This document shows, in pieces, positions 12,931 to 61,272 of a DNA stretch of 64,000 nucleotides (position 1 is the stretch's first letter; each line of letters opens with the position of its first letter). Origin of the DNA: Eledone cirrhosa. Taxonomy: Eukaryota. A model generated the notes under the pieces. That model saw only the letters and a program-made list of their open reading frames with translations. It did no database searches and was not told the DNA's origin. A program made the translations under genes and the position numbers. The DNA is taken from assembly GCA_964016885.1 (NCBI GenBank), contig OZ024740.1, positions 132,804,001 through 132,868,000 of the forward strand. The letters run 5' to 3'.

Positions 12931-13155
12931 ATGCACACTTGGTTTCTTTTTATATCAGGAACTAATTATACAGAGCGATTTCCGGTCCAGCAAAAATTAA
13001 AAATTAGGATGGGTGCTCTGAAATATGAAATAGCTTGTATACATGAATGTATGTATAGGTCTTCCAAATGTTTTAAATTAAACATACGGTATATTGCCAA
13101 ATATACTATACATACATAAATATACACATCGCTATTTCAGAGCACCAATCCTAAT
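12931..13155. repeat. Small head-to-head inverted repeat (arms about 13003-13058 and 13106-13155) between TA tracts
   Basis: attaggatgggtgctctgaaata pairs with tatttcagagcaccaatcctaat. The right arm abuts (TA)n and the left side extends about 70 nt further. Confidence 0.7.
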
Positions 13156-14759
13156 ATATATATATATATATATATATATATATATATATATATATTTAAT
13201 ACATTAACAGAGAAAGCTTTAATCAATATTCCGACCGGCTTCCGTCTCACTCAAGAAACATTAGGATATACCTTAGTATAATCCCAATTATACGTTTGGG
13301 GTGCTAACTATACGTATTTTGCGGATAGCCAGTTGTATTATTTTATATGAGACATAATTAAAATACATCTCTCCTTCCAAACGATCGTTTCATTATAAGT
13401 TTTCTACAAATTGGGAAAATAATGTCCTGGTTATGTAGAAGCCTACACATAGTCCGTAGGAATATATGTAGGTGGGCACTTATAAATCAATCGGATGCCC
13501 GACAAATATCGATATAAAAAAAACCTTACCGATATTAATGTCCAGCGATGGTACCCCTCCGTGCTAGAATGACCGCCAAATTTGAAATTCCAGCAATCTT
13601 ACAATGAGAAATCTCGCACTGCCATCAAGCGGAAAGGGGAGGTCATCGCAAAACATAAAATAATAAAATAATATGCACGCGGGTCAATTAATTCTTTCAA
13701 TAATTTTAACCATGCGTGAAGAACTCAATTGGATATAAAATAATAAATATATGCATGTATTATTTATACACGCATATAGGTATTTTCTTAGGCTAAAAAC
13801 AGAGATAAGATACCGGAAGAACAATCAATATTTCATACAAAGGAAAGTCATACCTAAAAAGTATCTGGAAATATTCATCCCTGGCTCCCTGGCCAAATCA
13901 AGTATATATATATATTAATACATTATATATATATATATATTACTTTCTTCATCACTAATTCTCGCTCTCTCAATAAATAATACTGACGTCAAGTAGGAAT
14001 ATCTCTATTTTCACATCACAGGAATTTTACACGGAAATATAATCTATATAGGGAAGTTATGGAGAGAATTATTTTAATAGAAAAATATTCTGCATGGTTT
14101 TCTTAATTCGTTATTGACGCACACAGAGAGAGAGAGAGAGAGAGAGAGAGAGAGAGAGAGAGAGCGAGAGAGAGAGAGAGAGAGAGAGAGAGAGAGAGAG
14201 AGAGAGAGAGAGAGAGAGAGAGAGATATGTACATACATACATGCATATATACATACAAACATGCATTCATACATACATGTATACATTCTTATGTAGATAT
14301 ATACATATCCATTGTACACCGATCGATGTAGGATTTAAATTTTGTATGCGCACTTGAAAATAATATCGATTAGATTGAAGGTCAGAGAATCAACAATCTA
14401 ACCTCCAGTCCCTGTAGAATGTAGAAACTAAGTTTCATAAATAATCGATGAAAACGAATTAAAAGGGAAATTCTTGGAGTCACGGAAGGAAAACTGTTGA
14501 ATGAATTCTTATTTTATTTTTTTGCTGGGTGTTATTATATTATGTTCGTATATCTCTTTTCTCTTACACTTTGAATTACACTGACTTAATTTTTATCTTT
14601 CTGTTTCTTGACCACATACGCATAAACACACGTATTAATATAAGTAAACAAATAAACAACTATATATATATATATATATATATATATATATATATATATA
14701 TGTGTGTGTGTGTGTGTGTGTGTGTGTGTCTGTGTGTGTGTGTCTGTGTGTGTGTGTGT

Positions 14760-15225
14760 ATGTGTGTGTGTGTGTGTGTGTGTGTGTGTCTGGGTGTGCG
14801 CGCGCGCGCATGTGTGTGTGTGTGAATATATTGATAAATAAGTATATATATTTGTGCGTGTATTTAAACGCACACACAGAAACACACAAACACATATACA
14901 TATATATGGACATATATATGTATATATATACATAAATATATATATATATATATATATATATATATATATTTATATGTATGTATATACATATATATGTCCA
15001 TATATATGTATATGAGTTTGTGTGTTTCTGTGACATATATATACATATATATGTGCATATATATGTATATGTGTTTGTGTGTTTCTGTGTGTGCGTTTAA
15101 ATACACTATACATACACGCACAAATATATATACTTATTTATCAATATATTCACACACACACACACACACATGCGCGCACGCACACACCCATACACACACA
15201 CACACATACACACACACACACATAT
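14760..15225. repeat. Microsatellite-rich palindrome centred on (TA)n near 14955
   Basis: gaatatattgataaataagtatatatatttgtgcgtgtatttaaacgcacacacagaaacacacaaac recurs in reverse complement at about 15070-15150. Confidence 0.85.
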
Positions 15226-15908
15226 ATATATAAACACTGTCTGTGCGTCTTGTAAGATAATAATCGTACATTACATCGGCATCTTTGTCACGTTCTGTTG
15301 TAAAAGTTACATCTACACGATTTAAACAAATAGTATGAGATAGTTGGAAATAATATAGATCCTGGTTGTAATAAGGATGATGATGGAAAGGAAATTAAAT
15401 ACAGGCGATTCTCTGACATTGAAATGCCGTATATCTGGTGATGTGACACACTGAACGCACAAGGAAATTGTTTGAGTGAATGGTAAATCCTTAATGGATA
15501 TTTTTTAAGAGGTTCAACACGTAACAAATGCATGAATCAATAGCCTGAAATAGTTGATAAGTTTCATTTAAGCTGAAACTTGTGTGTGTAAATGTGTATG
15601 TGTGTCAACATGTAGCTGTGTGTGTATGGATGTTCTTGTGTGCGTTTAGTCATCCATTTTAGATAAAGCTTATTTGTTTAAAAGTTAATAATCATAACCA
15701 TATTTCCATATATGATATAATTATTAATTACATTTATATAAACATACTTTGTTTGAGAAATATAGTATTGCAAATATGATTGCTAAGCAATTTGAATAAG
15801 TTTCTCGTACAGTGTTTTCTAACATATTGCATATCATTTTTGGTTCTATTTTTAATGCACAAATTCTAGGAAGTATTTTATTTTCGATTTCAGCAGCAGC
15901 AATTCGTT

Positions 15909-58121: not shown

Positions 58122-59037
58122 TATATATATATATATATATATATATATATATATATATATATATATATATATATATATATATATATATATATATGTATAT
58201 ATATGTAGATAAATCTACCAAAAGTTTACGGTAGTGTCCAATCCATATGAAGAACTCAATGTAATCCGGATATCATGAAAAGAAGAGATGCATTCAAAAA
58301 TCACTTTCGGTGAAAGATAAACGGAAAACAGAGTCAAGATAAATTATTAAAAAAATAATGAATAAACAAACAGTTCTTTATATTAAACAAAAAAAGTTCA
58401 TTATTTTACGATCGTTTCTAGGACATATATGTGTTAGAATTGGTATGCATATTCAAAAGATCTATGTACAAAATTATACAAACTATCAGAGAGAATATAC
58501 ATACCTTCACATATATATGCTGTCTTCAGAAATAATGATGCTTGTTTATTGATAATAACAACAATTCAAAATAATGGGTCTGTTTGGGAACAGATTTTAA
58601 ATAGACCAATGAAATAAGGATTGAGATAAATAAAAATTTATGAAGAAAATACAGTTAGGTGTGTGTATATATGTATGTAAATACGCTCACAGATGTGCAT
58701 AAAAGTGTATGCTCATATGTATACGTATATTGAAAAAGTGTATGTAAATATAAAAATTTAGGGCTAATGTATCTGTATGTCTATAATCAACAGACAGAAT
58801 ATATATATATATATATATATATATATATATATATATATATATATTATTATTATTATTATTATTATAAATATATGGATATTGAGGCGCTCACAGAAACACG
58901 CCTACACACACTTACATTTAGATGCGGAAGTAAAAGAGGTAAGGGAGTATAGTAATTAAAGGAAAATTCATTTCCTAAAAAATTCATTTCTACAAAATTC
59001 ATTCCTACAAAATTCATTCCTACAAAATTCATTCCTA

Positions 59038-59540
59038 CAAAATTAATTTCCTAAAATTGATACCATCATGTAAATATATGTAATTATTTTTAATTTAGTT
59101 ATGCTATAATTAATACTCTACTACAGTTTAACTTCAAAATTCCGCTTTAAATATTATAAACCTAATTAGTATACACCTTAGAAATTAATATATTAACTAT
59201 TTTTATTTTAGTTAAATTATAATTAATATTCTACTTATATTAAAATACATAATTTTTCCCTCTTACAAAATTCATTTCCTAAAATTGATACCATCATGTA
59301 AATATTTGTAATTATTTTTAATTTTGTTATGCTATAATTAATACTCTACTACTGTTTAACTTCAAAATTCCGCTTTAAATATTATAAACCTAATTAGTAT
59401 ACACCTTAGAAATTAATATATTAACTATTTTTATTTTAGTTAACCTATAATTAATATTCTACTTATATTAAAATACATAATTTAGCCTTCCTTCTTACAA
59501 ATACCATTTCCTAAAACTGATACCACTATGTAAACACATA
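59038..59540 (+). repeat. Tandem repeat of about 230 bp (two copies plus a partial), preceded by aaaattcatt(t)cctac minirepeats at 58963-59050
   Basis: Units start at about 59038, 59265 and 59498 with caaaatt.atttcctaaaa.tgatacca. Confidence 0.9.
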
Positions 59541-61272
59541 TAATGATTTAACTGCAGATTAATATTCTATGTTCCTTGAAACCTATATATTTACTATTTC
59601 CCACTAATAATGTTAACCCCCCCCCCCAATAATTATTTGTATTTGTAAGCGTGGATGTGTGTATGTGTATGTAAGTGTGTATGTATGTTTGTGTGTTTGT
59701 ATGTGAGTATAAAAATACATATGTGCGCATGTATATGTATGTGTATGTGTATATATATATATATATATATATATATATATGGGTATGTATGTATGTGTAT
59801 GTATATGTATGTGTAGAGATGTGTGTATGTATGTGTATATATGTGTATATATGTCTGACTGTGTATATATATATGTGTGTGTATGTCTATATATATATGT
59901 ATGTCTGAGTGTGTGTGTGTGTGTGGTTGTGTATATATACATGGGTATGTGTGTATATATATATATATATATATATATATATATGTATATATATATATAT
60001 GTGTATATATATATATGGGTGTATATTTATATGTATGGGTATATGTTTTACTTATTTTTATGTGTGTGCATACAAACAGGTCAATATGCGTGAGTGTAAG
60101 TATGTGTATGTGTGTGTGTGTACGTATGTATGTATCGAACGTATGGATGTGTAAATGTGCGTGTGTATATAAGCATGTATATTTTATGTCTCTCTTTTAT
60201 GTTTTTTTATATTTCTTTTGTGAGACATGCGTGTCTGTGTATGTACTCCCCCCCCCCTTTTTGTCTTTTTTTGTTTCCTTTTTTTGAGTTTTTTCCTTCT
60301 ATAAAAAATCTTTTTTATTTCTAATTTTATTGATACATTTTTATAAGTATGTCGAGATTGACACTTTCCTTTAATTACTATACTCCCTTACCTTTTTACT
60401 TTCGCAACTAAATGTAAGTGTGTGTGGGCGTGTTTATGTGAGCGCCTCAATATCCATATATTTATAATAATATATATATATATATATATATATATATATA
60501 TATATATATATATATATATATTCTGTCTGTTGATTATAGACATACAGATACATTAGCCCTAAATTTTTATATTTACATACACTTTTTCAATATACGTATA
60601 CATATGAGCATACACTTTTATGCACATCTGTGAGCGTATTTACATACATATATACACACACCTAACTGTATTTTCTTCATAAATTTTTATGTATCTCAAT
60701 CCTTATTTCATTGGTCTATTTAAAATCTGTTCCCAAACAGACCTATTATTTTGAATTGTTGTTATTATCAATAAACAAGCATCATTATTTCTGAAGGCAG
60801 CATATATATGTGAAGGTATGTATATTCTCTCTGATAGTTTGTATAATTTTGTACATAGATCTTTTGAATATGCATACCAATTCTAACACATATATGTCCT
60901 AGAAACGATCTTAAAATAATGAACTTTTTTTGTTTAATATAAGGAACTGTTTCTTTGTTTATTCATTATTTGTTTAATAATTTATCTTGACTCTGTTTTC
61001 CGTTTATCTTTTACCGAATGTGATTTTTGAATGCATGTCTTCTTTTCATGATATCCGGATTACATTGAGTTCTTCATATGGATTGGACACTACCGTAAAC
61101 TTTTGGTAGATTTATCTACATAATTTGCTCCTATTTTCACGGAAATATTCTTATTTTTGTATTGTGTATGTGTGTAAATTTTATATTTATGTATATACAT
61201 ATATATGTATGAACTTTATAAATCCATATACAAATAGTTGAGCTCTTTCTCTTGTCCATTATCCATATCACA

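Follow-up and report, generated by a model that had tools for sequence, protein, structure and literature searches.

In insertions of EN+ PLEs, a 5'-truncated inverted copy is joined head-to-head at the 5' end of the element, and partial tandems occur; a tail is often present at one end, the pLTR includes the ORF start, a hammerhead is carried, and (TA)n serves as target for clades with a Zn-finger linker (PMC8557442, PMC3846280, PMC2377424). The Hydra clade is recognized by an RWK-like motif, DKT, a CxCX5C linker, the lack of CCHH, CxxC and CxH around the E/N, and a TA target (PMC8557442). In a rotifer, the inverted-plus-tail structure of PLE insertions is accompanied by 9-10 bp target duplications, and in D. 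virilis it is the commonest form of Penelope. How the inverted repeats and the tail originate has been named as an open question (PMC8557442). According to the accessible part of a study on an anole PLE, the protein cleaves and extends both strands in vitro from two RNA start sites bounding the tail, with no strand difference in start site and with primer homology dispensable; it is predicted to form a dimer, and its targets are AT-rich (PMC11167929). The literature on PLEs already describes head-to-head copies, TA targeting and a tail on one side. New here is that 97 of 101 pairs join one long (tailed) and one short (untailed) end.

We analysed a stretch of 64,000 nucleotides from Eledone cirrhosa (hereafter the window), in which the following features were located:

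100-1551 (+), longer family B copy, GIY-YIG region 234-998, candidate hammerhead core 1363-1391
12896-12953, host flank 12896-12919, (TA)6, then a 23-nt inverted copy of the flank (12931-12953) abutting the long end of a family K element
12954-13155, family K pair: long arm 12954 to ~13058 (-), short arm ~13057 to 13155 (+)
18888-19345, family A pair: long arm 18888-19142 (-) with a 41-nt tail (18888-18928), short arm 19132-19345 (+)
21422-23506, family G pair: long-ended arm 21422-21955 (-), short-ended arm 21996-23506 (+), the latter ~1 kb longer
33081-37320 (-), long family E copy; its RT is broken, its endonuclease is Neptune-type (CX4CxxC linker, CCHH), and its short end lies within TA at 33081-33088
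37762-38420, family C pair: short-ended arm 37762-38200 (-) of more than one tandem unit, with a candidate hammerhead core at 37987-38011; long-ended arm 38196-38420 (+)
39871-40072, family H pair: long arm 39871 to ~40008 (-), short arm ~40012 to 40072 (+)
43224-43657, family B pair: short arm 43224-43412 (-), long arm 43405-43657 (+) with a 58-nt tail
44716-44958, family I pair: long arm from 44716 (-), short arm to 44958 (+)
44984-45321, resident DNA of an old repeat, duplicated in inverted orientation about a CA/TA/TG tract, no PLE pair
46557-47009, two inverted duplications of host flanks, each centred on TA, in the order X-(TA)-X'-Y'-(TA)-Y
48923-49640, family C pair: long arm 48923-49358 (-), short arm 49356-49640 (+), overlapping by 3 nt
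49770-52103, family D pair: short-ended arm 49770-49967 (-); long-ended arm 49968-52103 (+), containing a Hydra-type endonuclease remnant (50120-50428)
57722-58121, family E pair with both ends long
58203-61121, family F: inverted arm 58203-58965 (-) with a long end; truncated copy ~58963-61121 (+) in direct orientation
61222-63708 (+), ORF of Hydra-clade type by motif: RWR, DKT, CxCX5C linker, GIY-YIG, CxxC..CxH, one interrupting stop

A sequence-only reading had listed 12 places as fold-back insertions of PLE 3' ends, 44984-45321 as a possible case, and had proposed symmetric priming for them. Self-BLAST and alignment recovered inverted arms at all 12; the symmetry did not hold, nor did the inclusion of 44984-45321. 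Outside the TA tracts the arms at these places are 77-98% identical, so that identical-arm hairpins of assembly or library origin are excluded. The 3' ends run outward into (TA)n on both sides at nine listed loci. At 12931-13155 the pair is genuine, and its left element end lies at 12954, separated from TA by the inverted host-flank copy. The inverted arms at 58203-61121 were likewise found, with the correction that the direct arm begins near 58963 and runs on into a full-length copy and its ORF, which is the classic Penelope layout. As for 44984-45321, 28 other loci were found, none with an inverted partner, and nearly all of them continue beyond the supposed end into shared repeat sequence rather than TA. 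In total, the window holds 10 complete head-to-head pairs and one that continues into a full-length element. Nine of the 10 combine a tailed and an untailed end, and the tenth (57722-58121) has two tailed ends. The TA-centred host-flank copies at 46557-47009 and 12896-12953 show that (TA)n ends can prime alone; the former was missing from the earlier list, and its X flank is near-unique in the genome.

The density of hairpins, which had been called unusual, proved ordinary. For comparison, 72 stretches of 10 kb were taken from other places. By one automatic rule they hold 3.6 hairpins per 64 kb (bootstrap 95% range 2.2-5.2) and the window 5; by a looser rule they hold 4.4 (2.8-6.2) and the window 6; the window was accordingly rejected as a hotspot. 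In the 72 stretches, TA lies within 14 nt of an outer end in 56 of 72 tight-centred inverted repeats, compared with 4.5% of random intervals. By extrapolation, roughly 2x10^5 such hairpins are present in the genome. The short-read contigs of one sample match the unique flank 42400-42668 exactly, and repeats swamp the hairpin. Positions 43413-43454, the one junction examined in this way, had no coverage at 100% identity in three contig sets and one reduced-representation run, a gap that in itself proves nothing. Neither a spanning read nor an empty allele was seen in the short-read data searched.

Judged from their motifs, the hairpins are 3' ends of PLEs of Hydra and Neptune type, together with non-autonomous units bearing candidate hammerheads. 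RT and/or GIY-YIG sequence is linked to the 3' end in families A, B, D, E, F and G, which makes six families with demonstrated PLE identity; for H and I no ORF link was found. Three families had been claimed to be linked to RT/GIY-YIG copies within the window; we found four, and two further ones are tied through loci outside it. These assignments rest on motifs, since Pfam gave a sub-threshold GIY-YIG match for 234-995 and none for the ORF at 61222. Family A is a young PLE with a unit of 4083 bp, encoding RT plus, at its C terminus, GIY-YIG with a CX4CxxC linker; its ends fall within the first ~8-26 ORF codons, and the unit repeats at 4083 bp. Family A thus shows the pLTR end in the ORF start and the tandem arrangement of EN+ PLEs, and family F, which continues into the next copy, shows a partial tandem. 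The ORF at 61222-63708 carries RWR, DKT, CNCRNKANC and CRLC..CNH, the traits of the Hydra clade, which the endonuclease parts of families D and G also match (in G, Hydra-type endonuclease sequence is present at other loci of the family). Families A, B and E combine a CX2-5CxxC linker with CCHH in the GIY-YIG and are Neptune-type by motif, a label that covers Neptune or Nematis. Relatives of family K form 311-nt tandem units with a candidate hammerhead core, resembling retrozymes, and the tandem unit of family C is ~460-490 nt. A pattern search returned candidate hammerhead cores with stem II in A, B, C and K, a doubtful one in G, and none in D, E, F, H and I. In family I a hammerhead-like core was seen by eye. 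Among the best 150 of 201 Rfam matches hammerheads were absent, and microRNA matches were sub-threshold. A conserved stem-loop in the tail gave no consistent signal across seven families (z +1.4 to -2.7; D was spoiled by flanking TA).

End sites were discrete, two per family in nine families (three in A), as for an optional tail. Among pairs taken from the best 30 BLAST matches per query, rather than from a random draw of loci, 97 of 101 (seven families) were long plus short, as were 68 of 70 obtained with tail-neutral queries; independent choice would give at most 50% (p 2e-18). The proposed symmetric event does not survive these counts, the pair at 57722-58121 being the sole long plus long case. 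In family F, long anchors had 13 resolved partners; all 13 end short of the full tail, 12 of them at one site. Family C was kept outside the cleaned count because its ends are blurred by tandem read-through (raw 11 long-short, 2 short-short, 3 long-long), and family J was excluded as not being a PLE. Solo copies joined 5' to TA occur with either end type; solo and paired classes are unreliable for H and I, whose references are too short. In the 72 stretches of 10 kb, a tRNA-type SINE was head-to-head in 0 of 91 copies, versus 37 of 53 informative family A loci.

In 62 pairs the short-ended arm reached further 5' in 30, the long-ended arm in 19, and the two were equal within 10 nt in 13, with some junction calls in families B and E shifted by reference divergence. 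The 30 cases speak against simple fold-back, in which the arm copied from the tailed cDNA could not be the longer one. Eight inverted arms consist of the tail alone and have no overlap with their short-ended partner. In family A, minor alleles are shared between arms at 2.24% within the same locus versus 0.30% between loci, and discordance at polymorphic sites is 0.48% within versus 2.58% between loci. Shared subfamily alleles point in the same direction in B, D, E, G and I, and do not in H. Such sharing would be expected just as much from fold-back or from gene conversion at a later time. Taken together, the claim that PLE 3' ends are joined head-to-head anew at each locus was borne out by locus-specific junctions, and two separately primed cDNAs are the most likely source, as either arm may be the longer and tail-only arms exist.

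All 13 checkable end sites overlap the TA tract by 2-7 nt, with UA/AU at every checked end, while random sites do so by at least 2 nt in 21% of cases. One (TA)n primer thus fits both start sites, and this part of the idea that the two ends present the same primer was upheld; the equivalence of the ends was not. At the centre, microhomology of at least 2 nt was found in 6 of 47 asymmetric junctions (15% expected) and of at least 3 nt in 5 of 47 (5.7% expected). The two cases named earlier were confirmed (TGTACG near 38200, TGA at 49356-49358), yet microhomology is not enriched and is not supported as a joining rule, as it might have been under twin priming. Near-perfect centres, 13 among the 62 pairs, include several that recur at short palindromes in family E. 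A PLE family with a non-TA target was not found in the sequence searched; one candidate for such a control (L332) was rejected, as most of its copies end in TA too.

The main competitor, which we hold possible though unlikely, is fold-back self-priming, in which one cDNA or antisense template folds over and is copied back, the second end is resolved by the endonuclease at the short site, and the unstable palindrome centre later suffers deletions that leave the arms unequal. Fold-back has been proposed from palindromes at inverted junctions (PMC3846280), and a tail by endonuclease-mediated resolution (PMC8557442). It accounts for the long plus short rule, the shared alleles and the centred junctions (13/62), and the centred and palindromic junctions, which it predicts directly, are points against twin priming. 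Either arm could likewise end up the longer one if a palindrome lost its centre through random deletion. Nevertheless, such deletion would be needed in 30 of 62 pairs, reaching up to ~1 kb in arms that are 98-99% identical (L013, L179), and in the eight tail-only arms the whole shared part would have to be lost, whereas some centred hairpins (L001, L096, L097) still have their 200-nt arms without any deletion. Moreover, both ends act as RT start sites in vitro, as reported in the accessible part of the anole work (PMC11167929).

Strictly symmetric twin priming, with ends made equivalent by the self-complementarity of (TA)n and joined by microhomology, appears improbable. Every checked end overlaps TA, all sampled PLE families target it, and the snap-back copies of host flanks (46557-47009, 12896-12953) show that (TA)n ends can self-prime; against this, the ends are not equivalent and microhomology is at chance level. 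The same architecture accompanies 9-10 bp target duplications in a rotifer, and in D. virilis Penelope takes it more often than any other form, so that the need for a self-complementary microsatellite is not supported. We regard it as very improbable that two independent insertions, or different RNAs, met back to back in a TA hotspot. TA tracts do gather many neighbouring PLE ends, and one possible cross-family join was seen (L194), but no TA separates the arms, the partners share family and subfamily, and the long plus short rule would be unexplained. That the hairpins are MITEs or fold-back DNA transposons with TIRs and TA target sites, or assembly artefacts, is barely credible: TA flanks and inverted arms are MITE-like, a few junctions recur (E, H) and the read data yielded no spanning read, but spans and junctions vary by locus, the ends are unequal and, in six families, continue into RT/GIY-YIG ORFs. 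The arms differ by 2-23%, and the recurring E junction spans two subfamilies. Neither an equal, fixed-length TIR unit nor ends shared with a transposase were found, H and I being unlinked, and the MITE reading was rejected.

We consider it probable that head-to-head PLE 3' ends in (TA)n arise by coordinated but asymmetric twin priming from two fixed RNA sites. Of the in vitro results on the anole PLE, the cutting and extension of both strands, the two RNA start sites and the predicted dimer speak for this model; the equal start sites on the two strands and the dispensable primer homology speak against it. According to the model, both strands in (TA)n would be cut by the GIY-YIG enzyme, which is probably dimeric, as in the modelling of the anole protein. 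The 3'-OH on either side would read ...TA and could anneal, over 2-7 nt, to the start sites at the two borders of the tail. Each cDNA would stop on its own, or both at one roadblock, which would produce the perfectly centred class; end-joining that uses hardly any homology, or none, would then link the cDNA ends, and the gap would be filled. That one primer suits both sites would follow from the symmetry of TA, although the inversion need not depend on it. In a more general form, for which we see about even chances, PLE integration would be one event: holding a single RNA, a dimeric RT-endonuclease would cut through the target and prolong its two ends together, each from one of two UA-containing start sites, giving the inverted repeats and one-sided tail of all EN+ PLEs and some 2x10^5 hairpins in TA tracts here, the same TA breaks sometimes copying host flanks instead.

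The pairing rule, the tail-only arms and the same-template signal tie the two start sites known in vitro to the two ends of an insertion. If this is true, PLEs make both junctions by reverse transcription, unlike LINEs, with consequences for how second-strand synthesis is understood and for gene writing with PLEs. In this genome, the hairpins probably give rise to double-stranded RNA and to fragile sites, and they are likely to mislead MITE and microRNA annotation (cf. the sub-threshold Rfam microRNA matches among the matches listed).

Compared with canonical PLEs (Penelope, Neptune, Naiad, Hydra), the same head-to-head truncated copies, partial tandems, one-sided tails, ORF start within the pLTR and TA targets are present, along with candidate hammerheads in some families. 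Tails here measure 35-136 nt, those published 30-40 nt; furthermore, one-long-one-short pairing has been counted here (97 of 101), tail-only arms were found, and a single genome is estimated to hold about 2x10^5 hairpins. Our literature searches found no published twin-priming model of PLEs. In L1 twin priming, reportedly described by Ostertag and Kazazian in 2001, the two strands of the target each serve as primer on a single RNA, and an inversion results when the cDNAs are joined. The tail-only cases share this non-overlapping geometry. Unlike in L1, the two primers here would use fixed start sites close to the 3' end, separated by 35-136 nt, so that the arms usually duplicate the same sequence, there is no poly(A), and inversion is the majority rather than a minority outcome. 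PAc (Poseidon of Anolis) resembles our families in its two start sites bounding the tail and in the cutting and extension of both strands; the accessible part of that work draws no tie between the two starts and the two ends of one inverted insertion (PMC11167929). As described there, PAc needs no primer homology, whereas each end checked here overlaps TA by 2-7 nt. Finally, families C and K, with tandem units of 311-490 nt that carry candidate hammerhead cores, are like the non-LTR retrozymes that the accessible part of a preprint presents as non-autonomous PLE derivatives (bioRxiv 10.64898/2026.07.22.740005); in addition, they form head-to-head long/short pairs in TA.

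Inverted arms (77-98% identity; self-BLAST and local alignment) were present at all 12 places where the sequence-only reading had listed fold-backs, i.e. head-to-head 3' ends of Penelope-like elements (PLEs) in (TA)n, but complete pairs of element 3' ends were found at only 10 of them. At 12931-13155, the element ends at 12954, and a 23-nt inverted host-flank copy lies between element and TA. Two structures are described separately:

58203-61121: inverted arm plus direct copy, the latter continuing into the ORF at 61222-63708 (self-BLAST/alignment)
46557-47009: both host flanks copied in inverted orientation, each about a TA tract, X-(TA)-X'-Y'-(TA)-Y, with X near-unique in the genome

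The possible PLE pair at 44984-45321 was rejected. None of 28 other loci had an inverted partner and nearly all extended past that point into common sequence, so this is duplicated resident repeat DNA: an old repeat in inverted duplication, directly adjoining a family I insertion, with arms about 91% alike vs about 80% for other genomic copies. As for 46557-47009, the duplicated flanks measure 83 nt and about 25 nt and are joined back to back, which looks like snap-back synthesis from both (TA)n break ends on their own flanks, then joining, with no element involved. This class is rare, since a single rule found two clean cases among 1687 TA tracts outside the window (76 stretches); it found two within it. 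A low-complexity palindrome of TG, TA and CA tracts at 14746-15237 is 82% self-inverted and possibly a further duplication of the TA-centred kind.

The density of fold-backs had been considered unusual. In 72 10-kb stretches, taken at round coordinates on large contigs of this 3.0-Gb, AT-rich animal genome, a stricter rule detected 40 tight TA-flanked fold-backs, or 3.6 per 64 kb (95% bootstrap 2.2-5.2), vs five in the window; a looser rule detected 49, or 4.4 (2.8-6.2), vs six. The window is therefore average or somewhat enriched, and such fold-backs occur throughout the genome. Extrapolation gives 1.7-2.0x10^5 fold-backs per genome, likely an undercount because the counting rule misses roughly half of those present in the window. 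At many loci, a short TA tract separates PLE pairs of different families that face each other tail-to-tail, and TA thus remains on either side of each insertion as a target for the next; nested chains occur, for example, at 48923-52687 and 57722-61121.

Genomic loci for families A (two queries) to J were the 30 best matches to each query, taken with 1.5 kb of flanking sequence; family K is known only from loci collected for other queries. Family A is a young PLE with a 4083-bp unit, RT, a C-terminal GIY-YIG with CX4CxxC linker and an asparagine-rich insert (long at locus L151, 5597-6200); its 3' ends fall within the ORF start. GIY-YIG/RT copies are linked to family B at 100-1551 and to family E at 33081-37320, D contains an endonuclease remnant, G loci include endonuclease sequence, and F stands ahead of the ORF at 61222. 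Pfam searches contributed little to PLE assignment and clades were called by motif, by which A, B and E are classed as Neptune-type, while F, D and G carry the Hydra-clade motifs listed in the available part of PMC8557442. Families C (tandem units of about 460-490 nt) and K (311 nt) have pattern-predicted hammerhead cores. Among the best 30 loci per query, no ORF link was found for the short families H and I, whose ends behave as in the others. A MITE identity was rejected because junctions and spans vary from locus to locus. Also present in the collected loci were a great many different Hydra-type endonuclease families (30-60% mutual identity), besides Neptune- and Naiad-like ones; the description of Hydra had drawn on no more than about two dozen families. 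An unrelated LINE-type reverse transcriptase fragment lies at 4914-5885 (-) (Pfam RVT_1, under cut-off).

Every family has a short, untailed end and a long end lying 35-136 nt beyond, the tail being the stretch between. Among 101 pairs from the best 30 matches per query (240 loci, seven families, duplicates removed), 97 combined a long with a short end, rather than the symmetric ends proposed earlier; three were short+short (of which one, lying at a locus edge, is doubtful) and one long+long. Tail-blind queries gave 68 of 70, where independent choice would allow at most 50% (p 2e-18). Family F had an inverted partner at 17 of its best 30 loci: 12 ended at the short site, one near it, and four gave no end call. 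A natural read-through copy exists for 13 end sites, and each of these overlaps the TA tract, by 2-7 nt (random ends, 21%), although these are not all independent as families A and B are related. Head-to-head copies of an abundant SINE, presumably tRNA-type from its B-box motif, numbered 0/91 in outside stretches, vs 37/53 informative loci for family A (23 pairs, 13 adjacent inverted pieces and locus L193; six flank-edge loci set aside). One head-to-head pair of this SINE, (ATT)n ends outward, does lie in the window (42925-43204).

The centre of 43224-43657 had zero short-read coverage at 100% identity; in short-read contigs from one sample, the unique flank was matched, the hairpin itself not being separated out. 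Artefact is argued against because the arms diverge yet follow family-wide end rules.

Most likely, and with somewhat better than even probability in our estimate, fold-backs arise by priming at two sites on one RNA. The enzyme, presumably a dimer, would cut both strands in (TA)n, leaving two ends reading ...TA-3', one of which would prime at the long site and its partner at the short one; each cDNA would halt independently, or both at one roadblock, before end-joining. Self-priming fold-back with endonuclease resolution, as in published ideas (available parts of PMC3846280 and PMC8557442), followed by deletion at the palindrome centre, is the main rival, to which we give perhaps one chance in a few. 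Like priming at two sites on one RNA, it accounts for alleles shared between arms: in family A, shared minor alleles reach 2.24% between arms of one locus vs 0.30% between loci, and polymorphic-site discordance is 0.48% vs 2.58%, with the same direction in B, D, E, G and I but not H. It also accounts for centred junctions, yet only 13 of 62 long+short pairs (families A, B, D, E, G; junction gap < 100 nt) were centred within 10 nt, the short-ended arm reaching further 5' in 30 and the long-ended in 19 (family A alone, n=20: 5, 8 and 7). Secondary deletions would thus be required in about half of the pairs, and some of these deletions would be of kilobase size in very young copies. At eight further loci, a tail-only inverted arm joins a short-ended arm with nil or almost nil overlap, which would require total loss of the shared part.

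Symmetric twin priming from (TA)n self-complementarity with microhomology joining, as originally suggested, appears very improbable. It fails on symmetry, and, while both microhomologies it named are in the sequence, overlaps of at least 2 nt occurred at six of 47 asymmetric junctions (15% expected); nine were blunt or 1 nt, and 32 had extra bases, a figure inflated by reference divergence. Moreover, the same structure is published with 9-10 bp target duplications and as the commonest D. virilis form. Target symmetry may still play a lesser role, in that one primer fits both start sites; no PLE with a non-TA target, which would test this, was found among the collected loci and stretches, and published passages about insertions in Chlamys supplied no data on inversion.

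Clustered 5' truncations of both arms at 60782-60785 (family F reference 418-421) and at one site near the family B hammerhead core suggest a shared RT roadblock; 8/34 B arm starts lie within about 10 nt of that pattern-predicted core. Short palindromes are recurring middle junctions in families E and H, and the recurring E junction marks a hotspot, not a single hairpin that was mobilised again, because two subfamily alleles carry it. At L194, the 5' end of a short-ended family A arm is joined to family H sequence, possibly a cross-family pair or nested insertion.

The architecture is already known, the families are new and the density is ordinary for the genome. An open-access search (supplements and older key papers outside it) found no paper on PLE pairing counts, tail-only arms or two-site twin priming; long+short pairing is offered as a clean, testable clue to the open PLE mechanism. 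The asparagine-rich insert of family A resembles those called peculiar to rotifer Penelope elements in the available part of PMC3846280. The tandem units and hammerhead cores of families C and K recall retrozymes (bioRxiv 10.64898/2026.07.22.740005, in part); a 311-nt hammerhead unit related to K forms head-to-head arrays between TA tracts at L167 (5970-8038) and L348, with units 99-100% identical. The anole PLE protein, a predicted dimer, cuts and extends both strands, starting at two sites that bound the tail without strand preference; as far as the available part of PMC11167929 describes it, primer homology is unneeded there, in contrast to the 2-7 nt TA overlap at the ends found here.
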